The notes under the pieces are model-generated. The model was given only the letters and a program-made list of their open reading frames with translations. It did not search any database and was not told the origin of the DNA. A DNA stretch of 64,000 bases from Candidatus Daviesbacteria bacterium (GTDB lineage Bacteria; Patescibacteriota; Microgenomatia; Daviesbacterales; UBA10151), in contig JACPKP010000003.1 of assembly GCA_016186955.1 (NCBI GenBank), forward strand, positions 2,290 through 66,289, read 5' to 3'. Shown piece by piece: positions 3,367 through 54,783 of the stretch (positions are counted from its first letter, which is position 1; every line of letters starts with the position of its first letter). Made by a program: the position numbers and the translations under genes.

Positions 3367-3421
3367 GCAAATTTTAAATTTCGAATTTTAAATTAAAAAT
3401 TATTGTTGTACAATAAAAGAT

Positions 3422-28437: not shown

Positions 28438-30549
28438 ATGTCAAATCTATTCAAATCACTTAAAGATACCAAAATTCAACTGCTTATCATCCTCGCTCTG
28501 ACTTTTTTGGTTTATGCCAATTCATTGCCAAATAAGCTGCTTTGGGATGACCATTTATTTTTAGAACAGTGGCCGCAGGTACAAAGTTTTAAGAACCTGG
28601 GAGAGGTCCTTAAAGGCTCTGCGCCTCCTTCACAAGGCAAGATCTACAGGCCCTTGCGGGGGGTGTTTTATATGATTGATTACCGGCTCTTTGGGGCAAA
28701 CCCATTTGGGTATAGGGTCCAGGCTGTTTTAATCCACCTTATCAGCACACTTTTAGTCTATTTTATAGTTAGAGAAATTTTGACAAAACATTTCACCCCG
28801 GGGGTGAAAAATTTGAGATTACACCCCCGGGGTGGGGGATATTTACCTTTCATCACAGCCCTTCTCTTTGGCCTGCATCCCATCCACACCGAAACCATTG
28901 ATTATATCTCAACCAGTATGGAAAGTTTTGGGACGGTGTTTTTCTTTTTGAGCTTCTGGCTGTATTTATTGGCTCAAAAGTACACCCTGAAAGTACAAAA
29001 CCGGAGTGAGAATGCATGGTTGTATTTAGCTTCCGTAACCAGCGCTGCCCTGGCTTTTTTTACCTATGAGATGACGCTGACTTTGCCCATCCTGATAGTG
29101 CTGTATGAGCTAACCTTGGGTCAATTTCAAATTTCTAATTTCAAATTTCTAATTAAGATATTGCCTTACTTTGTGGCAGCTATAATCTTTGTGGTTATCA
29201 GGTTCAGCGTGCTTGGTTTAATCTCTAGGACAGATTACCTGGGTTATAGCTTTTACCTGACCCAGCTTACCATGGTGAAGGTTTTTGTGCGCTACATTGG
29301 GCTTTTACTTTTTCCGATTAACCAGACTGCCATCCACAACCTGGTGGGGGATTTTCCCTCCTCAATGATCCCTTATGATAAACTTGAACCTGTTTTAAAC
29401 CAGACCATCTTTGATAAAGATGTCTTGCTTGCTATATCAGTGGTACTGGGGCTGATTTTGGCAGCAGTTAAATATATCAGAAAATATCCAATTGTATCAT
29501 TTTCAATTTTATGGTTTTTCATAAGCCTGTTGCCTGTCTCTTATATCATTCCGCACGGCGGAGCCATGGCAGAAAAGTACCTGTATATCCCATCATTTGG
29601 ATTTGTACTAATAATCGGCTTCCTTATAGTTCAAAGTGCAAAACTTAAAGTGCAAAATTATAATTTAAAGCTAAAAAGTTCTAAGTTTTACACTATAGTT
29701 TTTACCTTTACACTTTTACTTCTAATTTCCTACTCCGTACTAACCATTCAAAGAAATACTGTTTGGAAGGATGACATTTCGCTTTTTTCCGACGTAGTTA
29801 AAAAATCACCGGAAAACCTGTTGGCAAACTACAATTTGGGCATCTGGTTTGGCAACTTTAACAAGCTTGAGGAAGCCGCAGCCCATTACCAGATAGCAAT
29901 TGATAAAGCCCCTGATTTTTTGGAGGCAAGGTATAACCTTGGGAATATTTACGCACGGGTTGCGCAATTTGAAAATGCTACAGCGCAGTACACGTATATT
30001 TTAAATATTAACCCCGGCCATAAACAAAGCCAAAATATTTTAAATAACATGGTTCTTTTAAAAACAGCATCTCCTTCAGCCCTGCTTAATTCCCCAAACC
30101 TGATGGTAGGTTTTACAACTAAAAATGGGTTGCAGTTTTCTTTCCCTGCCTTCTGGTCTAAGGGTGAGTTAAGGAAGGCAGTTTCAGAAAAAGAGACCAA
30201 AACAGGAAAAACTACACCTGTTAGCGATGAGGCTGTCGGCACCAGCCTTGAGTCTCCTGACGGGTTCAAAATCCAAATTATTGAAGACAGTTTGGGGAAA
30301 AAGAATATGGAGGAATATATAAATGGCCAAAAAGAGACCCATGGTAAGCTGGTAAACCAGGGGTTGGCCCAAATCCCGAATGCAGAGGGTGCTTTTGTTA
30401 AGGTTTGGGAAGGGGATGGTGTAACAAAACTCCAGTTCTTTCTTTTTATAAAGAAAAAAGTAATCCAGATAATAGCCTATCCGGCCGGTTTACCTTCAAT
30501 GCCGATTTTTGATGCCTTTTTAGGGTCTTTGAAGCTACATGACACATAA
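28438..30549 (+). CDS. TMTC-like (DUF1736) GT-C glycosyltransferase with C-terminal TPR repeats and conserved C-terminal 'YPA' module (paralog A)
   Basis: N-terminal 'LLIILALTFLVYANSLPNKLLWDDHLFLEQW' (loop-1 acidic motif of GT-C O-mannosyltransferase-like enzymes) and ~11 TM helices. TPRs ('YNLGIWFGNFNKLEEAAAHYQIAIDKAPDF...'). C-terminal 'KLQFFLFIKKKVIQIIAYPAGLPSM'. In-frame palindromic element at 28794-28834 and heptamer repeat at 29118-29150. Confidence 0.65.
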   Translation: MSNLFKSLKDTKIQLLIILALTFLVYANSLPNKLLWDDHLFLEQWPQVQSFKNLGEVLKGSAPPSQGKIYRPLRGVFYMIDYRLFGANPFGYRVQAVLIHLISTLLVYFIVREILTKHFTPGVKNLRLHPRGGGYLPFITALLFGLHPIHTETIDYISTSMESFGTVFFFLSFWLYLLAQKYTLKVQNRSENAWLYLASVTSAALAFFTYEMTLTLPILIVLYELTLGQFQISNFKFLIKILPYFVAAIIFVVIRFSVLGLISRTDYLGYSFYLTQLTMVKVFVRYIGLLLFPINQTAIHNLVGDFPSSMIPYDKLEPVLNQTIFDKDVLLAISVVLGLILAAVKYIRKYPIVSFSILWFFISLLPVSYIIPHGGAMAEKYLYIPSFGFVLIIGFLIVQSAKLKVQNYNLKLKSSKFYTIVFTFTLLLLISYSVLTIQRNTVWKDDISLFSDVVKKSPENLLANYNLGIWFGNFNKLEEAAAHYQIAIDKAPDFLEARYNLGNIYARVAQFENATAQYTYILNINPGHKQSQNILNNMVLLKTASPSALLNSPNLMVGFTTKNGLQFSFPAFWSKGELRKAVSEKETKTGKTTPVSDEAVGTSLESPDGFKIQIIEDSLGKKNMEEYINGQKETHGKLVNQGLAQIPNAEGAFVKVWEGDGVTKLQFFLFIKKKVIQIIAYPAGLPSMPIFDAFLGSLKLHDT
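28794..28834. repeat. GC-rich palindromic mini-element (caccccgggggtg - N15 - cacccccggggtg), in-frame
   Basis: Encodes 'TPGVKNLRLHPRGG'. Homologous copies at 44436-44476 and 53125-53165, with partial copies at 39030-39050 and 25178-25204. Confidence 0.65.
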
Positions 30550-32664: not shown

Positions 32665-34813
32665 ATGAAGTATTTTCGGTCGACGAAAGTTCAGATATTA
32701 ATAATAATTTTAGCTACTTTTTTAGCTTATTTAAACATCTTCCAAAATGGGTTTGTGGTAGATGATGAGGATTTCATAGTTAACTGGAAAGAAAAGCAGG
32801 AGATCACAAACGTTCCCCTGATGTTGAAGGGTAATAATCCACCTAAGTTTGGAGGGATATATAGGCCTATTAGAGGAGTATTGTACACATTTTATGATCA
32901 AATATTCGGTGCTAACCCTTTTGGTTACCACCTCCACTCAATCCTGGTCCACCTAGGGGTAACTGTTTTGGTTTACTTTATAACCAGGCAGCTTATACAG
33001 GGTTTAGGGTCTAGGGGTTGGGGTTTAGGGTTGGAAGTTAAAACTAAAAAAAATTCAACTATACCCTATACCCTACCCCAAAGGGGTAAGCTCCGCTTAT
33101 ACCCTATACCCTTTATTTCTGCCCTGCTTTTTGGCCTGCACCCTATCCATACTGACCGGGGTCTTTTTTATGCTTGCAGCGCTCCATCTTTATTTAATTG
33201 AGAAAAAAATGTATTCATATATTTTTGCAATTCTTGCCTTCTTTAGCTATGAACCTGCGTTAGTTTTAATACCCCTGCTGGTTACTTACGACGTGTTAAT
33301 TAAAAAAATACCATTAAGGGAAACGCTTAGTAACATTAAAAAATATTTGCCGTATCTGCTGGCAGGGTTAAGCTTTATTTTTATCAGGCTGGTATTAATT
33401 GGGCGGAACCCTGCGCATTTTAAATATTTAGCAGACAGCTTTTACCATACCCAGCTTATAATGACGAAGGTTTTTGTCAAATATTTAAGCCTGCTTATAG
33501 CCCCGTTTAATTTATCCTTAAACCACATCATAGACCCTGACTTTGAAACTTTTAACCCGCCTGTTAATGATTTTAAGTCATTTACCTCCCAGTCAATCCT
33601 TGACCCCTGGGTTATTACCTCAATTTTAATCATAGCCACCCTGATATTTATAACAATAAAATTTAGAAATAAGCTGCCTCTGGTTTCATTTGGGCTGGCC
33701 TGGATTTTTATATCTTTCCTGCCTTATGCCAATTTAGTTCCACAGCCTACCCCGCTTGCAGAAAGATACCTATATATAGCATCATTTGGCTTTTGTTTAT
33801 TACTGGGATACCTTTTAGTGGAAATTTCAAATTTCAAATTTCAAATTTCAAATTATTTTCTTTTTACTCTTTTCTTTTTACTCTTTTCTTTTTACTTCTA
33901 CCAGACTTACCAAAGGAACAAAGACTGGAAGGAGAAAGGCAGCCTTTGGCAGAGAGCTTTAGTTTATTACCCAAACAGCGCTTTCGCAAGTTATATTATG
34001 GCTAGGGTGAACCAGGAAAAAGGCAACCTGCCGGAAGCTATAAAATTTTACAACCAGACTGCAAATCTCCAACCAGGCTATGTAACTGCATATCTGGAAT
34101 TGGGTAGGCTTTACCACAAAAACAACCAGCTGGATAAGGCGTTAGAGGTACTAGTCAAAGCTACACAGCTTGAGCTTGAGCCGATAGATGAAAACAGGTT
34201 GGATGCATCTATCGGAGAGCTGGCAAAAGTTTACACTGAGATAGGATTTATCTACCGGGAGAAAAAAAAGTTTAAAGAGGCCTACACTAACTTTGAACAG
34301 GCGCTATCGTTATATTCAGGATACTTGCCTGCAAAGGTAAGCATTGAAACTCTGTTAAAAGATCATCCTGAGCTAAACGAACTGGCTAAAATTTACTCAA
34401 TGGAGAATTGGACAGAATATCATTCAAAATCCGGGCTGTCTTTTCAGTACCCCAAAATATGGGATATTAGTGAAAATGATGGGCAAATTCATATTTTTAC
34501 AAAAGATAAAAGCGCTAATATTGAGATAATTGTTGATGGGTTTTCTACATCAAAAGAAGAATATCTTAAAAATCAGACAGATATGCATGGAATGTTGGTA
34601 AACCAACGGTATACCAGGCTGCCTAATGCTGATAATGTTTATGCCAAGATTTGGAACGATCCTACGCCGGAAAGCACCGGAAGTGGAGTCCCGAAGCTGC
34701 AATTTTATGTTTTCAAACCCAAAAATGTCATTAAGTTATTCGTTTACCCAGCTGAAATTTCCTTGAAGGTAGTTTTAGACAGTCTAATGCGGAGCTTAAA
34801 GTTAACAATTTAA
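32665..34813 (+). pseudogene. TMTC-like GT-C/TPR glycosyltransferase paralog split by +1 frameshift next to a ~170-bp palindromic element (fragments 32665-33201 and 33131-34813)
   Basis: The N-terminal fragment ends right after the element-encoded '...LYPIPFISALLFGLHPIHT'. The C-terminal fragment resumes at 'TGVFFMLAALHLYL', so ~15 aa of the conserved core (ETIDYISTSMESFG in paralog A) are missing and the frame changes. The C-terminal part retains TPRs and the 'KLQFYVFKPKNVIKLFVYPAE' module. Confidence 0.5.
32985..33152. repeat. ~170-bp G/T-rich palindromic insertion element (copy 1)
   Basis: 'cagcttatacagggtttagggtctaggggttggggtttagggttggaagttaaaactaaaaaaaattcaactataccctataccctaccccaaaggggtaagctccgcttataccctataccc...ccatact'. 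Nearly identical to 35163-35330. Arms 'ggggttggggtttagggt' / 'accctataccctacccc' are partly complementary. Confidence 0.7.
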
Positions 34814-34829: not shown

Positions 34830-36912
34830 ATGGAGACAAAATTCAAATTTCTGAAACAAACCAAAATTCAGGTTTTAATCATTGTTTTGCTAACCCTTTT
34901 GGCTTACTCCAACATCTTTCAGAATGAATTTGCTGTTGATGACCTTTATCTGATCGTCAAATGGGAGAGGATACATAACTTATCAATTATCCCGGAGCTT
35001 TTTGTAAAGGATACGTTGGAAACAGGCTATACAGGTTACAGGCCTCTGCGTACAACAATCATCGCTATTCTTTACAATATTTTCAGGGAAAATACATTCG
35101 GCTATCATTTGTATTCAATTCTGGTGCATCTTAGTTCAACTCTTTTAGTCTATTTTTTAGCCAGACAGCTTATACAGGGTTTAGGGTTTAGGGGTTGGGG
35201 TTTAGGGTTGGAAGTTAAAACTAAAAAAAATTCAACTATACCCTATACCCTACCCCAAAGGGGTAAGCTCCGCTTATACCCTATACCCTTTATTTCTGCC
35301 CTGCTTTTTGGCCTGCACCCTATCCATACTTAAGCCAAAACTGATGCTTTTGTCCTCAATCCTTCTCGGGGTATTGGCATATTTGACTTTTGAGATCACC
35401 TACATCCTACCGCTGTTGATTTTTGCCGCTGAAATAATTTTATTCCCCGGCAAAATTAAATCCCGGTTAATCAAAGCTTTCAAAATAACACTTCCTTTTA
35501 CCCTGATTGTAGCAATAATTTTTCTCATCAGGTATCAGGTATTATCGCTAGGGGAATTTAAGGTAAATTATTTGGCGGGCAGTTTTTACTTAACTCAGGT
35601 ATTGATGCTGAAAGTACTACTCAAATATCTTCTTCTGCTGATTTATCCTGTGAATTTATCGTTAAACCACGTTATCTCCGGGAATTTTGAAACTTTTCGG
35701 GTGAACATCAATAGTTTTGATTGGTTTATTCATCAATCTATCCTAGAACCACAACCAATACTTGCATTGTTAATTGTTATATCACTAACGCTTTTGGTAT
35801 TTTGGTGCAGAAAGAAAAATCCCCTGGTATCGTTTTCAATAGCATGGTTGTTTATCAGCTTTTTACCTTTTTTTAACCTCATACCCCAGGCAACCGCTCT
35901 TTCGGAAAGGTATCTATATGTTGCCTCGTTTGGGTTCATACTTTTTTTATGCTGCGTATTATTTTATTTACCGAAAAAGTTGGGCTTTTTAATATTGATA
36001 TTGCTGGTAATTTCTTATGGAACCTTAACTTACCGTAGAAATTTTGATTGGAAATATGCATCATCGATTTGGGAGGCGATGTTGAGGGCCTATCCTAAAA
36101 GCGCCCTGGCAAATTATTTCGTAGGAACAATCTTTGAAGAGCGCCGTGAAAATGACGAAGCTATTTACTACTACCAGAGATCTTTAGAACTAAATCCCAA
36201 TATGGATTATGCCTATAATAGCCTGGCCTACCTTTATTTTAAACAAGGCAATTCGGCTCTGGCAAAAAATTTACTTCTACAAGAGTTGAAGATCCAAAAT
36301 AAGATATTAGATCGGAATCAAACGGATGTATTGTTAAATTTATCTGAAAGTTATGCCTTGTTAAGCAAAATAGCGCTAAAAGAAAAAAAATTTGATGAGG
36401 CTTTTGAATATTCTCAAAAAGCAATAACAGTAGATGCCGATAACCAAGATGCCTTTTTAGCGCAGGATTTGATATTGGCTGAGAAGCCGGAGTTCAAAAA
36501 AAATGCAGCCCTTTTCGACCCTAAAGGATGGCAACAGTTTACAAATAAAAATTATGCCTTTGCTTATCCTATAAATTGGTCAGCTGAAGAGAAAGAGGGC
36601 AAAATAGTTTTACATCCGTTTAAAAGACAATATGAAATAACTATAGAGAAAATAGATGGTTTTACAAATTCAGACAAAGATTTGTTTTTGAAATCACAAA
36701 ATCAATCTTTTGGAACCTTGGTTAAAGAAGAATCTGCCAAAGTGCCTGATACGGAGTGGGCATATGCCAGGATATGGAATGACCACGAACAACCCAGGCT
36801 TGAGTTTTATATCAGTAAAAAGGGGATAATCTTCAGGGTAATCGCCTTTCCCTCAACGTTCGCTTTAAAAGAAATATTTGATAAGGTCATACAATCCATA
36901 CAGGTATTTTGA
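34830..36912 (+). pseudogene. TMTC-like GT-C/TPR glycosyltransferase paralog split at the same element (fragments 34830-35333 and 35308-36912)
   Basis: The N-fragment terminates with a TAA immediately after the element ('HPIHT*'). The C-fragment resumes ~50 aa further into the conserved membrane core ('LSSILLGVLAYLTFEITYILPL'). It retains TPRs and the 'RLEFYISKKGIIFRVIAFPST' C-terminal module. Confidence 0.5.
35163..35330. repeat. ~170-bp G/T-rich palindromic insertion element (copy 2)
   Basis: Near-identical to 32985-33152 (single-nucleotide differences only). Confidence 0.7.
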
Positions 36913-40488: not shown

Positions 40489-42468
40489 ATGAGAAATATT
40501 ATGGCTAATCTCGGATCAATTAAGATGCAGCTTCTTATTATCAGCGTGGTAACAGTTCTTGCCTATTCCAATACTTTTCAGAATGGGTTTACAATAGATG
40601 ATCATTTATTCGTGGTGGATTGGCAGATCACTAAGGATTTAGCCAATATTCCCAAAATGTTCACCTCTGAATTTGCTCCTGGATTGGGAGAGCATAACGG
40701 AATTTATAGGCCGGTGAGAACTGTTTTTTATGCTCTCTCATATAAAATTTGGGGTATAAATCCGTTTGGATATCACCTTCAGGCTGTTTTGGTTCATTTG
40801 GCCTCAACGTTGCTAGTTTATTTTATAATCAGGGAATTATTGTTTGTTGCTCGGGGTTCTGCCGCGGCAGTTTCCCGTCGGGTGTCCTCAGTCGTTTTAC
40901 TCCCTGCGGGTACGCGCCGGGACCCCTCTGCCGCGTCACCCCTCGCAACTTATTTGCCTTTTGTCACCGCTTTGCTTTTTGCTCTCCACCCCATCCATAC
41001 TGAACCGGTCAACTATATCACCGCCAGCTTTGACATGATCGGGGAGATGTTTTTTTTTCTGGCATTTTGGCTGTATCTTAAGTCAGCAGGAAACAGTAAA
41101 GTTGCCTGGAGAAAACCTTTTTACTTTCTATCTCTTTTTTCCGCAGTTATTGCTTTTTTTACAGACGAAATTACCTTGACTCTGCCTTTTTTGCTGATTC
41201 TTTATGATCTCTGTTTCCGGAAAGAAATATTTAAAAAGCGGTATGAATCTACCCACGACCTAACGGTCGAGGTATCTTCTCTCGATCGGACTTCGTCCGA
41301 CTCTGGAAAACCCGCGACTTTACAGTCGGGGTTTTATCGAGATAAATTACTTAAAAATTACTTCCCATATTTTTTGGTGGGGATTGTTTACATATTCATT
41401 AGGGTTGGGGTATTTCATATAACTGCAAGAAGCCAGTATTTAGGGGGGAGTTTTTATCTGACCATGCTGACAATGGCAAAGGCGCTACTGCGGTATATTG
41501 AACTGTTAATCTGGCCCCTAAATTTATCCATAAACCCTCAGGTTGCCGATGGGATATATTCATGGGTTGGACCGTTAGTGAAAATGGATAAAATCCTCTC
41601 GCAAAAAATTACTGATCCGCCAATACTTTTGTCAGCATTAATAAACTTTATTTTGGTTGTGGTTGCAGTTAAAGCATATAGAAAAATTCCGCTTTTGAGC
41701 TTCAGCATAGGCTGGTTTTTTATATCACTACTTCCGGTTTCGTATTTAATTGCCCAGGGCCCGATTATGCAGGAGAGATATGTTTATATAGCTTCTTTTG
41801 GGTTTTGTCTGTTGTTAGGATGGCTTTTTTGTGTCATCCCGGACTTGATCCGGGATCCATTTTCTAAAGCTATTAAAATAGATTCCCGCTTTCGCGGGAA
41901 TGACAAAAAGGTTTTGAAATTTTTACTCGTTACTTGTTTCTTATTACTTATATCTTTCTATGGGTACAGAACTTATACCAGAAATTTTGACTGGAAAAAT
42001 GGGGAAACTGTATGGTTGAAATTAGTGGAACAGACTCCTGATGATGCATATGCCAATCTGATTGCAGGCAATGTCTTTAAATTCAGAAATGATTTGGATA
42101 CTGCCAGAAACTATTATCTGAAAACCCTTAGCCTGGCTCCTGATCTGCTAAACACAAAAGATATCTTCGGTGATTTATATGCAGTTGAGGGTACTGCCCC
42201 GTCTGAGTTTATCCGCAAGGATGGGGTTTGGGTAAAATATTTCAAACAGGGCAAAAAAATAGATTCTGGAATAATGTTTTTTTACCCTGAGCATTGGAAG
42301 GTGCAAGAGACTTTTGAGGGTTTTACTCTGCGGGGAGCTGTTTTGCAAGCACAGATAATTTATGGAAAGGAGCTGGGATTAGGGCAGGTGCAGGTTAAGA
42401 TAGATAAAAGCAGTCCGGAGGAGCTCAAACAACTGGAAGGGTTACTTAGCTCTTTGAGGGTTTTCTGA
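40489..42468 (+). CDS. TMTC-like GT-C glycosyltransferase with TPRs (paralog G) carrying GC-rich MITE and hairpin-element insertions
   Basis: 'LLIISVVTVLAYSNTFQNGFTIDDHLFVVDW'. 104-bp GC-rich element at 40846-40949 (encodes 'VARGSAAAVSRRVSSVVLLPAGTRRDPSAASPLAT'). Another GC-rich segment (41270-41340, 'TSSDSGKPATLQSGFYRD'). Hairpin MITE at 41833-41904. Diverged C-terminal module. Confidence 0.6.
   Translation: MRNIMANLGSIKMQLLIISVVTVLAYSNTFQNGFTIDDHLFVVDWQITKDLANIPKMFTSEFAPGLGEHNGIYRPVRTVFYALSYKIWGINPFGYHLQAVLVHLASTLLVYFIIRELLFVARGSAAAVSRRVSSVVLLPAGTRRDPSAASPLATYLPFVTALLFALHPIHTEPVNYITASFDMIGEMFFFLAFWLYLKSAGNSKVAWRKPFYFLSLFSAVIAFFTDEITLTLPFLLILYDLCFRKEIFKKRYESTHDLTVEVSSLDRTSSDSGKPATLQSGFYRDKLLKNYFPYFLVGIVYIFIRVGVFHITARSQYLGGSFYLTMLTMAKALLRYIELLIWPLNLSINPQVADGIYSWVGPLVKMDKILSQKITDPPILLSALINFILVVVAVKAYRKIPLLSFSIGWFFISLLPVSYLIAQGPIMQERYVYIASFGFCLLLGWLFCVIPDLIRDPFSKAIKIDSRFRGNDKKVLKFLLVTCFLLLISFYGYRTYTRNFDWKNGETVWLKLVEQTPDDAYANLIAGNVFKFRNDLDTARNYYLKTLSLAPDLLNTKDIFGDLYAVEGTAPSEFIRKDGVWVKYFKQGKKIDSGIMFFYPEHWKVQETFEGFTLRGAVLQAQIIYGKELGLGQVQVKIDKSSPEELKQLEGLLSSLRVF
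40846..40949. repeat. 104-bp GC-rich MITE with terminal inverted repeats GTTGCTCGGGG...CCCCTCGCAAC (copy 1)
   Basis: ~70% GC in a <40% GC context. Internal perfect palindrome 'ctgccgcggcag'. Three near-identical copies at equivalent positions of three paralogs. Confidence 0.8.
41833..41904. repeat. Hairpin MITE, GTCAT...ATGAC family (in-frame)
   Basis: 'gtcatcccggacttgatccgggatcc...gattcccgctttcgcgggaatgac'. Encodes 'VIPDLIRDPFSKAIKIDSRFRGNDKK'. Confidence 0.6.
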
Positions 42469-43851: not shown

Positions 43852-45822
43852 ATGCAGCATTGTTATGCTGGTCATAGATTAATGGTAACCTGTTTCAAGA
43901 ACACTAAATTGCAACTTCTCATAGTCTGTGTTTTAACCCTTCTTGCTTACTCTAACATCTTCGCAAATGAATTTGCCACAGATGACATTGGATATTTTTA
44001 TAACTGGGATATCCCCAGGCATATAGAAAATATCGCAAAGATTTTTACTACAGATTCTGTACCCAAAGATGAGCAGGGGGTTTACAGGCCGGGGAAGGCT
44101 CTTCTGATAATGCTCTCTTACAAGCTTTGGGGGTTAAACTTAACAGGATACCACCTTTTCTCACTTTTTGTACACCTTGGCTCCACAGTTTTAGTCTATT
44201 TTATAACCAGGAAAATAGTATCAAGTATGGAGTATGAAGTATTAAGGATTAAAAAGTTGAATACAAAATACTCAATACTAAATACTGTATACTCTATACC
44301 TTTCATCACTGCTCTGCTTTTTGGCTTGCATCCAATCCATACAGAAGCCATAACTTTTATATTGGCAAGTTATGACAGCGCAGGCCTGCTTTTTTATCTG
44401 CTGGCATTTTGGCTTTACTTATTGGTTCTCAAGGACACCCCGGGGGTGGAAAAAATGCAGTTACACCCCCGGGGTGAGTATGCATGGTTATATTTCGCTT
44501 CCATATTAAGCGCCGCCGCAGCATTTTTGACCTATGAGATGACTTTTACCTTACCGTTGGTGATTATGTTGTACCATTTTTGTTTCAGAAAGAAGTTGGC
44601 AGCCAGGATTATCCCGTATTGGTTAATCCTGGCAGGTGTAATCTTATTGCGGGTGTTCATGCTGCATATCCCCTCCCGGGGGGAATATTTAGGCGGGGAT
44701 TTTTACCTGACCATGCTGCTTATGACAAAGGTTTTTATACAGTATATACAGCTTCTTATTTTGCCTTTAAATTTGAGCCTGGACCATCAGGTTGCTCCGG
44801 GGATTTACTCTGTTGTCTATCCGGCTTATGTAAATTTAGAGACACTCCGTGCACAGTCAATTTTTGAACCGGCTATTTTGGCAAACGCAGGTATTATTAC
44901 CGGGGTTTTTGTATTTGTCCTGAAATGGTATAAAAAATTACCTTTGGCAGCTTTTGCAATAGGCTGGTTTTTTATAACACTTTTGCCTGTTTCAAATATC
45001 ATCCCCCAGGGCCAGATTATGGCAGAAAGGTATCTTTATCTGCCGTCATTCGGTTTCTGCCTGATAGCAGGATATTCCATTAGTAAAATTTTCAATTCGA
45101 AATTTTCAATTTTCAATAAATTTTCAATGTTTAAATTTTTAAAACATTTAAATTTCAATTCAAATTTTAAATCATACACCCGTCCTCTGGACGTAAAAAC
45201 TAAAAATTATGTTTTTTTTACTCTTTTCTTTTTACTCTTTTCTTTTTACTTCTACCAGACTTACCAGCGCAACAAAGACTGGAAGGATACCCCAACTGTT
45301 TGGCAAACACTTGTCCGGCAAAACCCCGCCCATCCGGTTGCCAACCTCACTTTGGCCAGGATTTATAAAGAAAAAGGACAAAATACCCAAGCTGCTTTTT
45401 ATTTTAATAAAGCGCTTGATCTGGACCCTAATTTAAAAGATGCAAGACTATCCTCTAATTTTTATCAGAATAAAAATCTCTCATTTTTTTATCCCAAAGG
45501 CTGGAATATAAAAGAAGAAGCAGGGATAAAAGTATCTAAAAAGAATTTTGAGATTCAAATTGAATCAGAGATGTTGGGGGATAATTCTATTGAAGACTAT
45601 CTTTTAAAACAAAAAGAATCATTGGGTGTTTTGAAAAGCCAGGGATTAGTTAAACTTCCGCATTTTACAACAGCTTATCTTAGGCTATACACCTTGCCTT
45701 TTAAAGCTGATATATATCAGTTCTTCCTTTTTAAAGCAGGGAATGTTATCAAAGTAACTGCCAACCCTGTGGATATTGAAGAAAAAAGTAGTTTGGATTC
45801 TATATTAGAATCAATGGATTAG
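43852..45822 (+). CDS. TMTC-like GT-C glycosyltransferase with TPRs and conserved C-terminal module (paralog I)
   Basis: 'LQLLIVCVLTLLAYSNIFANEFATDDIGYFYNW'. AT-rich inverted-repeat insert at the hotspot loop (44215-44300). Palindromic element at 44436-44476 ('TPGVEKMQLHPRG'). Heptamer array at 45085-45175. C-terminal 'IYQFFLFKAGNVIKVTANP'. The true start may be the internal Met at ~43882. Confidence 0.6.
   Translation: MQHCYAGHRLMVTCFKNTKLQLLIVCVLTLLAYSNIFANEFATDDIGYFYNWDIPRHIENIAKIFTTDSVPKDEQGVYRPGKALLIMLSYKLWGLNLTGYHLFSLFVHLGSTVLVYFITRKIVSSMEYEVLRIKKLNTKYSILNTVYSIPFITALLFGLHPIHTEAITFILASYDSAGLLFYLLAFWLYLLVLKDTPGVEKMQLHPRGEYAWLYFASILSAAAAFLTYEMTFTLPLVIMLYHFCFRKKLAARIIPYWLILAGVILLRVFMLHIPSRGEYLGGDFYLTMLLMTKVFIQYIQLLILPLNLSLDHQVAPGIYSVVYPAYVNLETLRAQSIFEPAILANAGIITGVFVFVLKWYKKLPLAAFAIGWFFITLLPVSNIIPQGQIMAERYLYLPSFGFCLIAGYSISKIFNSKFSIFNKFSMFKFLKHLNFNSNFKSYTRPLDVKTKNYVFFTLFFLLFSFYFYQTYQRNKDWKDTPTVWQTLVRQNPAHPVANLTLARIYKEKGQNTQAAFYFNKALDLDPNLKDARLSSNFYQNKNLSFFYPKGWNIKEEAGIKVSKKNFEIQIESEMLGDNSIEDYLLKQKESLGVLKSQGLVKLPHFTTAYLRLYTLPFKADIYQFFLFKAGNVIKVTANPVDIEEKSSLDSILESMD
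44436..44476. repeat. GC-rich palindromic mini-element (caccccgggggtg-N15-cacccccggggtg), in-frame
   Basis: Same family as 28794-28834 and 53125-53165. Confidence 0.65.
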
Positions 45823-45833
45823 GGGATATTTAT

Positions 45834-47471
45834 ATGTTTATACTAGATATCTTAAAATCAACTACAGCTCAGATTCTACTTATTATTTTTTTAACAGTCC
45901 TAGCTTATTCCAATATCTTTCAAAACTCATTTGTAGGCGATGATTATGTCTTTATTATCAACTGGGACAAGGCCCATAAGATAGACTTTATCCCAAAAAT
46001 GTTTATGGGAGAGTCAGCGCCTGAAGGTCATCAAGCTGTATACAGACCAATCAGATCTTCAATCCTGACCCTCTTATATCAAATTTGGGGGTTAAATCCC
46101 TGGGGTTATCATCTTTATTCGTTGTTTGTAATAATATTTTCAACAGTTTTGGTCTATTTTATAACTAGGCAAATAGTGTATGTTGCTCGGGGTCCTGCCG
46201 CGGCAGTTTCCCGTCGGGTGTCCTCAGTCGTTCCACTCCCTGCGGGCACGCGCCGGGACCCCTCTGCCGCGTCACCCCTCGCAACTTCTTTTATACCTTT
46301 CATCACAGCTCTGCTTTTTGGCTTGCATCCGATCCATGTGGAGTCCATCACCTTTATGTTGGGAGCAATGGATTCTACAGGGGCGCTTTTTTTCCTTTTG
46401 TCATTTTATTTTTGGATAATACGCTCTGATAAAATTATATTTTTCTATTTTTCGCTATTTTTTGCTGGAGCAGCATATTTTACAAATGAAATCACAATCA
46501 CTTTGCCATTGGTAATTTTAGCTTATGAATATTTTTTTAACTTTGATAATCGGAAAAAACCTTTCAAACTTAAAAATTTTAATCTATTTTTAACGCATGT
46601 AACAGCTTGGTTTTTTTATTTAATCTTTAGAATATTCATTTTGGGGGTTCATTTTAAAGGAGAATATTTAGGTGGGAGTTTTTATCTGACCATGCTGACG
46701 ATGGTTAAAGCTCTTATTAAATATATACAAATTTTTATCTGGCCGAATAATCTATCTACTTATCCAACTATTGCTCCGGGGATAGAGTCATACACAGGTT
46801 TGTACGCTCCTATGGGAAAAATTATGACACAATCTATTTTTGATCCGGACATACTGGTATACCTTGTGTTTTTTGGGGCGCTGTTTTTTGCCACCTTCCA
46901 TTTTAGGAAAAAGTTTCCATTATTGTCTTTCTCCATAGCCTGGTTTTTTATCAGCCTTTTGCCTGTATCGGGAATATTTCCCCTGGATACTTTAGTGCAG
47001 GAAAGGTATGCATATCTATCTTCGTTTGGATATTGTCTCTTTTTAGGCTGGGCCTTTTTAAAAATATTTAATATTAAACATCAAAATTTTTATGTGAAAT
47101 ACTTTGCCCTGTTTATTTTTTTAGTGTTGATTTCCAGTTATTTTTATTTCATTTACGGACGCAACCAGGATTTTAGAAACCAGATAACATTTTGGGGGAA
47201 ATTAGCATCACAAGCGCCCAACAATCCTTTGATAAATTATTATCTGGCAGCAGAATATCAATATGCAGGTAGGGATATGGAAGCAATTAGATATTTTGAA
47301 AAAGTTCTGCAGGTTGCCCCTAATGCTCCCGATGTTTATTTTAGGTTAGGTCAGATTGACCAAAAAAAAGGTAATCTGGAAGAAGCTATAATTAATTATC
47401 AAAAAGCGCTAAGATTTGACCCAGGCTATTTGCCTGCGCAACAAGCCTTAGGTGATCAGGTAAAAAAGTAG
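45834..47471 (+). CDS. TMTC-like GT-C glycosyltransferase with TPRs (paralog J, lacks the C-terminal 'YPA' module)
   Basis: 'ILLIIFLTVLAYSNIFQNSFVGDDYVFIINW'. 104-bp GC-rich MITE at 46182-46285. TPRs at the C-terminus ('YFRLGQIDQKKGNLEEAIINYQKALRFDPGY'). Confidence 0.6.
   Translation: MFILDILKSTTAQILLIIFLTVLAYSNIFQNSFVGDDYVFIINWDKAHKIDFIPKMFMGESAPEGHQAVYRPIRSSILTLLYQIWGLNPWGYHLYSLFVIIFSTVLVYFITRQIVYVARGPAAAVSRRVSSVVPLPAGTRRDPSAASPLATSFIPFITALLFGLHPIHVESITFMLGAMDSTGALFFLLSFYFWIIRSDKIIFFYFSLFFAGAAYFTNEITITLPLVILAYEYFFNFDNRKKPFKLKNFNLFLTHVTAWFFYLIFRIFILGVHFKGEYLGGSFYLTMLTMVKALIKYIQIFIWPNNLSTYPTIAPGIESYTGLYAPMGKIMTQSIFDPDILVYLVFFGALFFATFHFRKKFPLLSFSIAWFFISLLPVSGIFPLDTLVQERYAYLSSFGYCLFLGWAFLKIFNIKHQNFYVKYFALFIFLVLISSYFYFIYGRNQDFRNQITFWGKLASQAPNNPLINYYLAAEYQYAGRDMEAIRYFEKVLQVAPNAPDVYFRLGQIDQKKGNLEEAIINYQKALRFDPGYLPAQQALGDQVKK
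46182..46285. repeat. 104-bp GC-rich MITE (copy 2)
   Basis: Near-identical to 40846-40949 and 52876-52979. Confidence 0.8.
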
Positions 47472-51101: not shown

Positions 51102-52528
51102 GGGGAAACAGCTATTTTTTAATTCCAATATTTTTAATAGTTGTTCAGGGGATATATTCAATTTCATCAATAGGCGAACTGAGGCTTGAGGAAGCGATTG
51201 AATCTATAAGAAGTGTTTACTGGTTTCAAAACCATCTGGTCTGGAATGGTGGATATACAAATTTAGGATGGTATACGGTTTTGGCGGTTGTCTATAATCT
51301 CTTTGGTTTTAGCGTTTATAGCGCTAAGTTTGTTAAACTTTTTGTTTACATTTTAGCACTTTTATGTCTTGCAGCTCTTTTAAAAAAATACTTAGGTGAA
51401 AAATTAGCTATCGTTCCTCTTTTAATGATTGGATTCTCACCAACCCTCATATATTTAAACAGTTTACAGATATCGCATGGCATAGAGGTAAGTTATTTTT
51501 TAATTTGCGCTTACTTAATTTCCAACTTAAATTTTAAAAAAAGAGCTGAATGGATGTTGCAAACAATTCTTGGAATTGTAGCTGCAATTGCCGTTCTTTC
51601 ATATCCGGCGTTTATTTACTATTTACCGATTATTAGCTTTTATTATTTATATCAATTAAAAAATCAGTGTAAAAAGGCATCAATAAGCTTAATTGTATTT
51701 TGTACGTATCTTTTACTTAGTATTTTATATATTAAGAATAGACAAATTCTTATATATGATACAAACAGCAATCTAGGATTATTCAGAGGAGGAGGCAGAT
51801 TGGAATTTGATTTGGATCTTTTGATAAGTAACTTTAGAATAATGTTTTCAGATTTGTTTCAAATTCCAGTTAGTTATTATTTTGAACCATTAAAAACAGA
51901 GTTTTCAGATTTTTATCCAATGTTTGTTGTAATTTTTGTTATGGTTATTAGTTTAGCGCTTTTCCTCAAAATACAGAGACTACGGTTTTTTATTGGATTT
52001 GTTTGGACTTGTTTTTTAGGTTATTCAATTGTTTTAAACTTATTTGGACCTATTGGGTTAGGAGGGATAAGAAGGGAAACAATTATCCTCACATTATTTT
52101 ATTTACTTTTTGTAATTGTTTGGAAATTTATCTCGAACATAAAGAAATCTTCTTTCGGCCGGAATTTAGTTTTAGTAGTTCTTGGTTTGTTACTTATACA
52201 TCACATCTTTGTTTACCCCCAAAATTTGGGACAATTGAATAAGCAGAGTAAATTCGGTAATTGGTTTGCTCCAAATGCGGAGCTTAGTTTTAGAAGTCAA
52301 ATCAAAACTATTGAAGCAGAAGACCTATGGGTCAATTGCGAGGAAAATGTTAATCCCTATGCGCATTCAAGATGTGCAGGTTTAAGTATCAACTATGCCC
52401 TGATAGCAGGTGAGTGTTTATGGAACAGACGGCTTTGTCATAAAGTCATAGCTTTTGATGCAAAAAACCAAAAACATTTTTTGATTAATTTAAATTTTTG
52501 GGGGGAAGGATCACATGCCGAACCATGA
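51089..52528 (+). CDS. polytopic membrane protein of unknown function (possible GT-C glycosyltransferase or polymerase)
   Basis: 479 aa with ~12 predicted TM helices, embedded in a glycosyltransferase cluster. No diagnostic motif recognised. Confidence 0.4.
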   Translation: MLKMRGNSYFLIPIFLIVVQGIYSISSIGELRLEEAIESIRSVYWFQNHLVWNGGYTNLGWYTVLAVVYNLFGFSVYSAKFVKLFVYILALLCLAALLKKYLGEKLAIVPLLMIGFSPTLIYLNSLQISHGIEVSYFLICAYLISNLNFKKRAEWMLQTILGIVAAIAVLSYPAFIYYLPIISFYYLYQLKNQCKKASISLIVFCTYLLLSILYIKNRQILIYDTNSNLGLFRGGGRLEFDLDLLISNFRIMFSDLFQIPVSYYFEPLKTEFSDFYPMFVVIFVMVISLALFLKIQRLRFFIGFVWTCFLGYSIVLNLFGPIGLGGIRRETIILTLFYLLFVIVWKFISNIKKSSFGRNLVLVVLGLLLIHHIFVYPQNLGQLNKQSKFGNWFAPNAELSFRSQIKTIEAEDLWVNCEENVNPYAHSRCAGLSINYALIAGECLWNRRLCHKVIAFDAKNQKHFLINLNFWGEGSHAEP

Positions 52529-54783
52529 AAGATAAAGTCAAAACTATAATTCAAAATTCAAACTTTCAGATTATAACATTAGTCTTATTAACAATTTTAG
52601 CTTATTCCAATATTTTCTCAAACGGTTTTGTCATTGATGATAAAAGTTTTATTGGGGGTTGGGAGGGGACTAAAAGCTTAGCAAACATCCCGCAATTTTT
52701 TGCAGGCGCTGTCCCGCCGGGCCATGAAGGGGTTTACCGGCCTTTAAGAAGCGTACTTTATGCAATCTATTATCAGGTATTCGGGACTAATATTTTTTGG
52801 TACCATCTCCATTCAATTCTGGTTCATTTAGGGTCAACAATTTTGGTCTATTTTATAACCAGGGAATTAGTATATGTTGCTCGGGGTCCTTCCGCGGCAG
52901 TTTCCCGTCGGGTGTCCTCAGTCGTTTCACTCCCTGCGGGTACGCGCCGGGACCCCTCTGCCACGTCACCCCTCGCAACTTCTTTCATACCTTTCATCAC
53001 AGCCCTACTTTTTGGCCTCCAACCCATCCATACAGAAACCATTACCTATATTGCATCCAGTATGGATGCGGTAGGGATGATGTTTATGTTTTTATCCTTC
53101 TATCTTTACCTTCGGGCACAACTCACCCCGGGGGTGAAGAAAATGCAGTTACACCCCCGGGGTGTAATCCTGGGAGCCTCAGTAGTTTCTGCATTGGCAG
53201 CCTATTTTACCAATGAAACTACACTTATCTTGCCGCTACTGTTGATACTGTACAATATCTGCTTTAGAAAATTAGGATTTGTTTCGAATTTCGGTATCCG
53301 ATATTCGAATTTATTGCTTTATTTGCCTTATTTTGCAGGAGTTTTGATTTACTTCATGGTTCGCTTTTTTGCTCTTCAAATCACTTCAAGAGGGCCATAT
53401 CTGGCGGACAGCATTTATTTTACCTTTCTCACCATGACTAAGGTGTTTGTAAAGTATATCTCCCTTATATTGTTGCCTTTAAACCAGGCAAACAACCACA
53501 CCATCTCAAAAGGGATAGAAGCATTTGTTTACAGGGGTTACAGCCCTGATGCAATCAAAGCGCAAACATTGTTTGATGCAGAGGTATTACTATGTATTGT
53601 TGTTATTATTGCATTGTTTTTATTAGCCTGGAAGATGAAGAAGAAACTACCCATTGTAACATTCGGGATAGGGTGGTTTTTTATTTCTCTTTTGCCGGTT
53701 TCTGAAATTATCCCGCAAGGCTCTATGTTGGGCGAGAGGTTTTTGTATATACCGTCATTTGGGGCGATACTGATTATCGGGTATTGCCTGGGCATAATTT
53801 TTAATTTTAAATTTTTAATTTTCAATAAAAATTTCAAACTTCAAATTTCAAATTCATTAAAGAATATAGTACTGACTACATTTATTGCAATCATTTGTGG
53901 ATATTTTTACCTCACATACACTAGAAACAAAGACTGGCATGATGAAACTTCCCTCTGGTCTAAAGATATTAAAGTTTATCCCGATTCCAATGCTTATGCA
54001 TATTTTCAACTGGGGAATGTCTATTTGGGAAATAACCAGCTGGATAAGGCGCTTTCCAACTATAACCGTTCTTTTGAAATCAATCCTCATTTTGCAGTAG
54101 CCATAGCCAGCGCCGGCAGGGCTGATGAGCGGCAAGGCAATAAAGATGAGGCGGTAAAAAACTACCAAAAGGCCATAAATACAGACCCTAATTTTTGGGA
54201 AGGCTATATTATTTTAGGGGCTATAAATATTGAAGATGGTAACTTTGATTTTGCAAGTAAATATTACCAAAAACTTTCTACAATTTATCCGCAGTATACA
54301 GTTGCTAAAGATATCTTAGACCAGCTTTCCAGGATAGAGCCAGGCGCCAAAAACCTCAAGGTACAAAACGGGGGTATCTTTAAAGCTTTCAGTAACCGGG
54401 TTATAACGTTTTCATATCCTGCAGACTGGAGGTTTGAAGACGGCAAAACTGAATTTAAGCTTACCAGCAGCGGCGAAAAACTTAAAATTGATATTAAAAA
54501 AATTGCAACGAAAGAGAATTCTATTGAAGATTATCTTAAATCAAAAAAAGCTACTTTTGGGTTACTGAAAAACCAGGGGCCGGCTAAAATACCGCAATTT
54601 GACGATTCTTTTGTAAAAGTTTGGCAGGATCCTCAAGATGGGGATATTTTAAAACTGCAGTTTCTTCTTCTGAAAGGAGAAGATATTTTAGAAGTCTTAG
54701 TTTATCCTGCAGACTCACCTTTGATGCGGCAGTTTGATGAGATATTAGCAAGTATTAAAATAGTAACACCATCCAAAAGATGA
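52525..54783 (+). CDS. TMTC-like GT-C glycosyltransferase with TPRs and conserved C-terminal module (paralog P)
   Basis: 'QIITLVLLTILAYSNIFSNGFVIDDKSFIGGW'. GC-rich MITE at 52876-52979, palindromic element at 53125-53165, heptamer array at 53800-53860 ('FNFKFLIFNKNFKLQISN'). TPRs. C-terminal 'KLQFLLLKGEDILEVLVYPADSPLMRQF'. Start set at the internal Met that overlaps the upstream stop by 4 nt. Confidence 0.65.
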   Translation: MKDKVKTIIQNSNFQIITLVLLTILAYSNIFSNGFVIDDKSFIGGWEGTKSLANIPQFFAGAVPPGHEGVYRPLRSVLYAIYYQVFGTNIFWYHLHSILVHLGSTILVYFITRELVYVARGPSAAVSRRVSSVVSLPAGTRRDPSATSPLATSFIPFITALLFGLQPIHTETITYIASSMDAVGMMFMFLSFYLYLRAQLTPGVKKMQLHPRGVILGASVVSALAAYFTNETTLILPLLLILYNICFRKLGFVSNFGIRYSNLLLYLPYFAGVLIYFMVRFFALQITSRGPYLADSIYFTFLTMTKVFVKYISLILLPLNQANNHTISKGIEAFVYRGYSPDAIKAQTLFDAEVLLCIVVIIALFLLAWKMKKKLPIVTFGIGWFFISLLPVSEIIPQGSMLGERFLYIPSFGAILIIGYCLGIIFNFKFLIFNKNFKLQISNSLKNIVLTTFIAIICGYFYLTYTRNKDWHDETSLWSKDIKVYPDSNAYAYFQLGNVYLGNNQLDKALSNYNRSFEINPHFAVAIASAGRADERQGNKDEAVKNYQKAINTDPNFWEGYIILGAINIEDGNFDFASKYYQKLSTIYPQYTVAKDILDQLSRIEPGAKNLKVQNGGIFKAFSNRVITFSYPADWRFEDGKTEFKLTSSGEKLKIDIKKIATKENSIEDYLKSKKATFGLLKNQGPAKIPQFDDSFVKVWQDPQDGDILKLQFLLLKGEDILEVLVYPADSPLMRQFDEILASIKIVTPSKR
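52876..52979. repeat. 104-bp GC-rich MITE (copy 3)
   Basis: Near-identical to copies 1 and 2. Confidence 0.8.
53125..53165. repeat. GC-rich palindromic mini-element (caccccgggggtg-N15-cacccccggggtg), in-frame
   Basis: Encodes 'TPGVKKMQLHPRG'. Confidence 0.65.

Follow-up and report, generated by a model that had tools for sequence, protein, structure and literature searches.

Results and Discussion

Three Copies of a Hairpin Element in GT-C Paralogs

The stretch of DNA analyzed here, a 64-kb window of a 322,873-bp contig, is a cell-envelope glycosylation cluster that encodes GT2 and PMT_2 enzymes, methyltransferases, a carbamoyltransferase, and ∼8 paralogs from one family of membrane proteins with C-terminal TPR repeats. 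The product of one of these paralogs, open reading frame (ORF) C, is identical to a protein of Candidatus Daviesbacteria bacterium (Candidate Phyla Radiation (CPR)/Microgenomates), and the neighboring genes carry HYW46 tags. Three of the paralogs, ORFs A, C, and D, each contain a copy of the same GC-rich hairpin element of 104 nt, which is the subject of this report. Copy counts in this genome cover the window. The host genes, the copies, and their flanks are located as follows.

40489..42468, forward strand: host ORF A (= P0002, HYW46_00930), GT-C-type membrane glycosyltransferase paralog
45834..47471, forward strand: host ORF C (= P0001), GT-C membrane domain with C-terminal TPR repeats
52498..54783, forward strand: host ORF D (= P0003), GT-C/TPR paralog
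40846..40949, forward strand: copy A of the GC-rich hairpin element, 104 nt, in frame in ORF A, encoding VARGSAAAVSRRVSSVVLLPAGTRRDPSAASPLAT
46182..46285, forward strand: copy C of the same 104-nt element, in frame in ORF C, residues 117–151
52876..52979, forward strand: copy D of the same 104-nt element, in frame in ORF D
40804..40845, forward strand: conserved 5′ flank coding for 'LVYFI(I/T)Rxxx', with equivalents at 46140–46181 and 52834–52875
40950..41000, forward strand: conserved 3′ flank coding for '(I/L)PF(I/V)TALLF(G/A)LHPIHTE', with equivalents at 46286–46340 and 52980–53034

An original prediction, made from the sequence of the window, had described three near-identical copies of a miniature inverted-repeat transposable element (MITE) at these positions, and both the coordinates and the few-base differences between copies are borne out. 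Each pair of copies differs at 4 of 104 positions (96.2% identity). Six sites vary over the three copies, with exactly two changes private to each, a star relationship, and the changes are of the T/C, G/T, and G/A types. The predicted GC content of ∼70% also agrees with the measured values, which are 68.3%, 72.1%, and 68.3% for copies A, C, and D, as compared to 33–49% in the 2-kb bins of the window and ∼40% in the window overall. A 33-nt core of the element occurs three times in the window versus not once in 100 shuffles. The element begins with GTTG, and its termini, GTTGCTCGGGG and CCCCTCGCAAC, are complementary at 9 of 11 positions. The internal 12-nt palindrome CTGCCGCGGCAG, which had been called perfect in each copy, is so in copies A and C, while copy D carries one mismatch (CTTCCGCGGCAG).

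All three units start in frame 0 of their host ORFs, there is no stop codon in the host frame, and each copy encodes the 35-residue peptide that had been predicted. A length of 104 nt is no multiple of 3, so that the in-frame unit has to include one flanking T as well, for a total of 105 nt. Five of the six frames through the element are open, which accounts for the short overlapping ORFs found there, including the high-GC ORFs listed previously. The peptide itself is under no visible constraint, because all but one of the six substitutions are non-synonymous.

RNA folding of the element, proposed earlier as a check, gives one long hairpin for each copy, with free energies of −50.9 kcal/mol for copy A (z = −4.5), −55.8 kcal/mol for copy C (z = −5.5), and −45.1 kcal/mol for copy D (z = −3.3). 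Both strands give the same values, and the result holds with DNA parameters as well. The complementary termini form the base of this hairpin, so that the whole element is a single long imperfect hairpin, and more than a pair of inverted termini. At two of the six variable sites the substitution disrupts a stem pair, and a T-rich tail, TTCTTTT, comes after the hairpin. The data support the description of the element as a small discrete inverted-repeat hairpin without coding capacity of its own.

AlphaFold models ORF C with high overall confidence (pLDDT, the per-residue confidence score, 93.6; pTM, the predicted template modeling score, 0.93), and the modeled membrane domain matches the folds of the GT-C enzymes ArnT, PglB, and STT3. 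The sole low-confidence stretch of the model, at residues ∼121–150, falls within the insert (117–151) and is mostly coil between two long helices; the means over its 10-residue blocks are 53, 57, and 77, with pLDDT below 50 at residues 127–132. Because the insert coincides with the only low-confidence stretch, the model places the element in a permissive, disordered loop between two transmembrane helices. Among the 93 homologs in which both the YH and the HPxH motif could be anchored, the most common spacing between them is 39 residues (31 of 93), as compared to 72–73 in the element-bearing proteins. Most homologs have no insert at all, and the element is not ancestral to the GT-C/TPR protein family. 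The converse case, in which the segment would be an ancestral part of the family, is thus at odds with a modal loop that is ∼34 residues shorter, though it holds in part within the clade of ORF A, where the element is old at its site.

Recent Copying between Non-Sister Genes

The three host proteins are 43–46% identical, and their DNA is ∼50–60% identical. A neighbor-joining tree of the host proteins (422 trimmed columns, 200 bootstraps) does not recover A, C, and D as a monophyletic group in any of the 200 bootstraps. Instead, A groups with the homologs P0005 and P0012 in 93% of bootstraps, C is sister to the insert-free P0004 in 95%, and D is separate from A and C in 98.5%. P0028, which comes from the same genome as the window and is 65% identical to P0005, is likewise insert-free, and the presence of the element is patchy even within the ORF A clade.

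Element identity and host divergence do not run in parallel. Between A and C the element is 96% identical and the protein 44%; between A and P0005, whose insert on contig L002 is a relative of the element, the corresponding values are ∼70% and 50%. Simple vertical inheritance under constant constraint is ruled out by this comparison, and recent copying within the genome is required, in agreement with the recent copying that had been read from the near-identity of the copies (96% in the element against ∼50–60% in the host-gene DNA). The most economical history on these sequence comparisons would be a long residence in the A lineage followed by a recent transfer to C and D.

A sliding identity profile shows the element as a sharp island of 93–100% identity over a background of ∼50–60%. 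Between A and either C or D, differences begin 2–3 nt beyond the hairpin ends on both sides, and the longest exact flank match is 9–11 nt; RecA-dependent exchange usually needs flank identity longer than 11 nt. Between C and D, identity falls within about 7 nt of the hairpin ends. In contrast, two neighboring paralogs with an insert of their own, P2 and P3 (see below), share an identical tract that extends ∼50 nt past that insert, as gene conversion would produce. We therefore favor the view that the element was inserted as a discrete unit, its ends set by the element itself and its target not duplicated, with gene conversion as the main rival.

All three copies are housed at one homologous codon position, in the same orientation and frame. 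Nowhere in these genes is the DNA better conserved than in the flanks: the 5′ flank is 73–93% identical across all of the paralogs, including those that carry other inserts, and the 3′ flank belongs to family D14. In the 5′ flank, exact matches extend to 10 nt at most between A and either C or D, and to 19 nt between C and D. This conservation reflects coding constraint rather than co-conversion, since it is also seen in paralog B, which has a different insert. A single T flanks the element on each side in all three copies, with no longer direct repeat, so the search for target-site duplications around each copy yields this T and nothing more.

A Diverged Relative at the Same Site

DNA searches covered genome_contigs (one genome per species, 185,579 species), metagenome_contigs, and viral contigs. 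An exact 21-mer from the core has no match in the genomes of the 185,579 species and one match in the metagenomes (L001), which lies in a 56–63% GC ORF with unrelated flanks; we rejected L001 as a carrier of the element and regard it as a chance 21-mer match in an unrelated high-GC ORF. A degenerate core pattern, which fits both the element and its L002 relative, has no match in the species genomes or in the viral contigs, and a gapped pattern of both termini has none in the viral contigs. At the protein level, the 35-residue peptide retrieves P0001 only from 1.84 billion representative proteins. A concatenated five-frame peptide query gave no match and is unreliable, as it missed P0001–P0003, which phmmer scores at E values of 1e-8 to 1e-6; the word-index protein search can miss exact 35-residue matches that phmmer scores at E ∼1e-8. 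A second homolog search with ORF A as the seed returned no further element-bearing proteins.

Among ∼140 homologs, a related insert is present only in P0005 and possibly in P0012. P0005, from the Logan assembly L002, has a relative of the element that shares its site and reading frame and is 69–71% identical over the alignable part, with an identical 13-nt block (CTCGGGGTTCTGC) near the left end and 30 nt extra inside. The P0012 insert (L003) has only its left 15 nt in common with the element and forms no significant hairpin; it is possibly a remnant. The L002 relative is 55% GC in a contig of 42% GC, and because it too is GC-enriched, the high GC content belongs to the element lineage itself and is no sign of a foreign donor. 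The horizontal origin that had been deduced from the foreign GC content is thus not sustained: the collections searched returned no GC-rich source, and the relative that they did return is in a low-GC, CPR-like contig.

The L002 relative also allows the stem to be compared. Of 31 comparable stem pairs, 28 are kept and 3 are broken. Those kept comprise 19 without any change, 4 in which both partners were replaced, and 5 in which one partner was. All five one-sided changes give G-U pairs on the sense strand and none do so on the antisense strand (p ∼ 0.03 in a single comparison). The terminal stem of the element is conserved in L002 in its pairing and not in its sequence, and overall identity is alike at paired (70%) and unpaired (68%) positions. 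The L002 hairpin forms on the sense strand only, at −45.5 kcal/mol as compared to −35.6 kcal/mol on the antisense strand, a difference of 10 kcal/mol. In this small sample with one outgroup, the stem conservation points to a constraint at the level of nucleic acid, on one strand, which could reflect a requirement of mobilization or a function of the transcript. An Rfam scan of the element by E value gave a chance match only (ncS16, E = 2), and an Rfam scan of the window at the gathering thresholds gave two tRNAs and no known ribozyme, riboswitch, or small RNA. A terminator scan did not report the element; its rule admits only loops of 3–8 nt, and its silence is hence uninformative.

Other Inserts in the Same Loop

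Four further paralogs in the window have inserts in the same loop that are unrelated to the 104-nt element.

28784..28841, forward strand: paralog P1 insert, 58-nt GC hairpin (CACCCCGGGGGTG..CACCCCCGGGGTG), −31.1 kcal/mol, z = −4.2
32999..33104, forward strand: paralog P2 insert, 106 nt, partly palindromic, z = −1.4, no better than shuffles
35176–35281: paralog P3 insert, twin of the 106-nt P2 insert
44222..44294, forward strand: paralog B insert, 73-nt AT-rich hairpin, z = −3.7

At least four unrelated sequence families thus occupy one codon position in the paralogs of the window, three of them as significant hairpins. The segment lengths of all insert families at the loop equal 1 modulo 3, and the frame is always kept and open. 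Inserts are also found at this loop in many CPR homologs from other samples (two of these, in L004 and L005, are strong hairpins with z-scores of −4.4 and −3.2), and 30 of 93 homologs have at least 16 extra residues there. The loop is therefore a general hotspot for inserts in the GT-C/TPR family. That several hairpin families have come to share a single codon position is both the most interesting feature of this system and the one explained least.

Homologs with such loop inserts include P0033 (L005:2164–2286), P0037/P0061, P0039, P0019, and P0042, among others, and several of the inserts translate to hairpin-repeat signatures such as 'ARSDSDEAI..LRFARNDK' and 'SFPRKRESR..IRSGMT'. P2 (32665–34813) and P3 (34830–36912) are each split into two overlapping ORFs, with a TAA stop in P3 directly after HPIHT. 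They have in common a tract of ∼165 nt with one base different, consisting of the 106-nt insert and ∼50 nt of 3′ coding sequence, and are ∼45% identical in the remainder; to judge from this alignment, the tract looks like gene conversion between neighboring, possibly decaying genes. An 8-nt direct repeat, GCTTATAC, surrounds the P2/P3 insert and was rejected as a simple target duplication, as removal of the unit would break the frame.

Several other repeat families were seen in the window. A 41-nt hairpin, CACCCCGGGGGTG-N15-CACCCCCGGGGTG, occurs at 28794–28834, 44436–44476, and 53124–53164, in frame, in three paralogs and at two different loops, and encodes the peptide TPGVK..LHPRG. The P1 ortholog in GCA_964522265.1 (L004:3346–3417) has CACCTCGGAGGTG..CACCTCCGAGGTG, with compensatory stem changes and in another frame (THLGGEKNAVTPPRW). 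A two-hairpin element, GTCATCC...GGGATC...GATTCCCGCTTTCGCGGGAATGAC, is in frame in ORF A at 41833–41906 ('VIPDLIRDP..SRFRGNDK') and recurs at 24537–24599 in a different frame of the unrelated ORF 23507–25561 ('..RLIPAFAGMT'); it is a dispersed family of coding palindromes. AT-rich repeats of the AATTTCAAATTTC type occur at 3370, 13428, 23647, 25554, 29123, 33823, 45087, and 53803. The copy at 3370 is intergenic, and the repeats are otherwise in frame inside several ORFs, with peptides like 'FKFLIFNKNFKLQISNS' in a second loop of the GT-C paralogs. Elsewhere in the window, a giant ORF at 10973–21937 (3654 residues) contains dozens of ∼174-nt (58-residue) repeats with conserved motifs such as 'GD.G.F.TTSQ.QLP' and 'STY.YV.GG', and is probably a surface repeat protein.

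Explanations for the Copying

The explanation that we favor, tentatively and at somewhat less than even probability, is that the element is a non-autonomous, translated-through hairpin repeat that was recently copied as a discrete unit between homologous sites. The element would be carried in coding sequence and translated along with its host gene, adding a linker of 35 residues to a short disordered loop, where the protein may tolerate it and no function for the host need be supposed. Having long resided at its site in the ORF A lineage, it would have been copied, recently relative to the divergence of the genes, with the ends given by the hairpin base, into the non-sister paralogs C and D. 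A structure- or strand-specific activity acting in trans would make the copy and would prefer, within the conserved DNA motif 'YFITR...IPFITALLF', an AT-rich T|T site. Such an event would be homing-like, of a transposition type without target duplication, and survival of the copies would then be restricted to the permissive loop. In support of this account, other hairpin families in this genome are dispersed to non-homologous sites and to other frames. Several observations count against it. The copies share a single homologous site, one orientation, and one frame, which gene conversion predicts as well. There is no fourth copy in the window. There is neither a target-site duplication nor an empty-site allele, so the ends are not exactly definable. 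No Pfam match to a transposase was obtained among the 29 ORFs scanned of the 46 window ORFs of at least 150 residues, and these likewise contain no reverse transcriptase, Y1 transposase, or RAYT gene. The exact flank matches between C and D reach 17–19 nt, and a C–D transfer by conversion is possible. Finally, the L002 hairpin is no better than shuffles (z = −1.2), and the covariation evidence rests on this one outgroup.

The principal rival, doubtful in our estimation and still the strongest of the alternatives, is concerted evolution without any transposition machinery, in which an old inherited loop insert was homogenized among the paralogs by short-patch gene conversion. Conversion would be guided by the conserved flanks or begin inside the palindrome, for example after hairpin cleavage, and GC-biased conversion could account for the high GC content. 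The identity of site, orientation, and frame in all copies is what this process would leave behind, the flanks are the best-conserved DNA of these genes, and the neighbors P2 and P3 display a clear conversion tract over an insert of their own. The relatives in other organisms are also at the same site, and dispersed copies were not found in the window or in the collections searched. The edges of the element speak for discrete insertion instead, as the identity tract of A with C and D stops 2–3 nt from the hairpin ends, between flanks whose exact matches of at most 11 nt are too short for the usual RecA exchange. Moreover, P0004, the sister lineage of C, and P0028, that of P0005, are both insert-free, so C and D probably held no old copy to convert. 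A precedent for conversion as a means of spread does exist in the var1 GC clusters of yeast, which spread by polar gene conversion (PMC8811140).

Three other readings are improbable to different degrees. The hairpin may be functional, with the peptide incidental to it: selection would act on a structure that the mRNA, or a single DNA strand, forms at a set place in these genes. Such a structure could pause translation after a transmembrane segment, act like an attenuator or terminator, be cut by an RNase, or prompt recombination and so diversify the paralogs. We consider this rather unlikely. Such a function would fit the gathering of at least four unrelated families, three with significant hairpins, at one codon position that is also used in many CPR homologs; the retention of stem pairing in L002 with all one-sided changes as sense-strand G-U pairs; the 41-nt element of the P1 ortholog, which keeps its stem by compensatory changes in a different reading frame; and the T-rich tail 3′ of the hairpin. 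It fits poorly with the majority of homologs being insert-free, the patchy presence within the A clade, the two of six substitutions that break stem pairs, the lack of an Rfam match, the silence of the terminator scan (within its limit on loop size), and a G-U bias that amounts to p ∼ 0.03 in one comparison. Of the same low probability is a CPR "cassette slot", in which hairpins are installed and exchanged at one GT-C codon position by a structure- and strand-dependent, homing-like process, the hairpin itself is selected, and the 104-nt unit is one allele rather than a passenger; if so, the hairpin, as sense RNA or single-stranded DNA, could serve, from within the gene, as a signal for regulation or recombination by which the large family of surface-glycosylation paralogs is controlled or diversified. 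Least likely is the original idea of a classical MITE derived from an insertion sequence (IS), of foreign GC-rich origin, forming target-site duplications and with an autonomous parent elsewhere. The MITE label remains apt for a small, non-coding unit with inverted termini, GC-rich in a low-GC genome and in near-identical copies, but it fails for the duplication beyond a single T and for dispersal. The window contains no dispersed copies, and its scanned ORFs gave no match to an IS, a transposase, or an autonomous parent. The same label is opposed by the lack of an exact or degenerate match in the species genomes and viral contigs (the one metagenome match being due to chance), by the conservation in L002 of terminal pairing and not of sequence, unlike an inverted repeat bound by a transposase, and by the GC enrichment of that relative in its 42% GC contig, which removes GC content as evidence of a donor.

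Other identities were considered and rejected. A diversity-generating retroelement would require a reverse transcriptase, of which there is none among the scanned ORFs of the window, and the T/C, G/T, and G/A differences, two private to each copy, are not adenine-confined to one template. An intein, an intron, or translational bypassing does not apply, as there is no endonuclease and no copy or insert family shifts or closes the reading frame. An integron attC site has its ends arranged the opposite way to the GTT...AAC ends seen here, and independent datasets have a relative at the same site, which argues against an assembly or vector artifact.

Comparison with Known Hairpin Repeats

Prokaryotic MITEs are described as shorter than 500 bp and typically AT-rich, with inverted termini, a stable stem-loop transcript, no transposase, and in-frame fusions in some cases (PMC10969869). 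The present element has the small size (104 nt), the inverted termini, complementary at 9 of 11 positions, and no transposase gene; it has no flanking direct repeats and no dispersal at non-homologous sites, it is GC-rich, and the scanned window ORFs include no parent IS. With repetitive extragenic palindromic (REP) elements and their RAYT transposases (PMC3733652), a second comparison can be made. The likeness lies in a hairpin repeat, thought to be handled as a single-stranded, strand-specific substrate, without target duplication. REPs are 20–40 nt long, extragenic, and high in copy number, and one end of each bears a GTAG or CGTC tag. The element described here differs in being 104 nt, intragenic, and present in three copies, in starting with GTTG, and in having no RAYT gene in the scanned window ORFs.

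The yeast mitochondrial GC clusters are closer in character, being GC-rich palindromes in AT-rich DNA that occur as optional in-frame coding insertions. They are shorter than this element, at ∼30–60 nt. They differ as well in their AG/TAG repeat flanks, in being mostly intergenic and organellar, and in spreading between alleles, whereas the copying here is between paralogs of one genome. Within var1, optional in-frame clusters spread by unidirectional gene conversion into alleles that lack them, at the corresponding site, and are recombination hotspots (PMC8811140). The closest analogs are the Rickettsia palindromic elements (RPEs), in-frame palindromes of ∼100–150 nt in many genes and in intergenic DNA, with 44 insertions in R. 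conorii (Ogata et al. 2000, 2002, as cited in PMC10969869). Both are palindromic units of ∼100–150 nt, in frame and translated through with several open frames, at sites that the protein fold tolerates, in bacteria that have small genomes and depend on a host. RPE insertions are spread over dozens of unrelated genes, in contrast to the one homologous site of one family that is used here, though other hairpin families of the window do occur in unrelated genes; the present element is moreover GC-rich and in a CPR phylum.

Coding-sequence palindromes are best known from Rickettsia and yeast mitochondria, and this case would extend the phenomenon to the CPR. Two features would be unusual additions, namely that several unrelated hairpin families share one codon position across paralogs and orthologs, and that one such family has been copied, as one discrete unit, among genes that are not sisters. 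In practice, inserts of this kind create spurious ORFs, inflate apparent protein divergence, and mark the permissive GT-C loop. If the site specificity is real, an uncharacterized activity that mobilizes or recombines hairpins may be present in CPR genomes. By analogy with these systems, the best reading of the element is that of a coding palindrome, closer to the RPEs of Rickettsia and the GC clusters of yeast than to a classical MITE.

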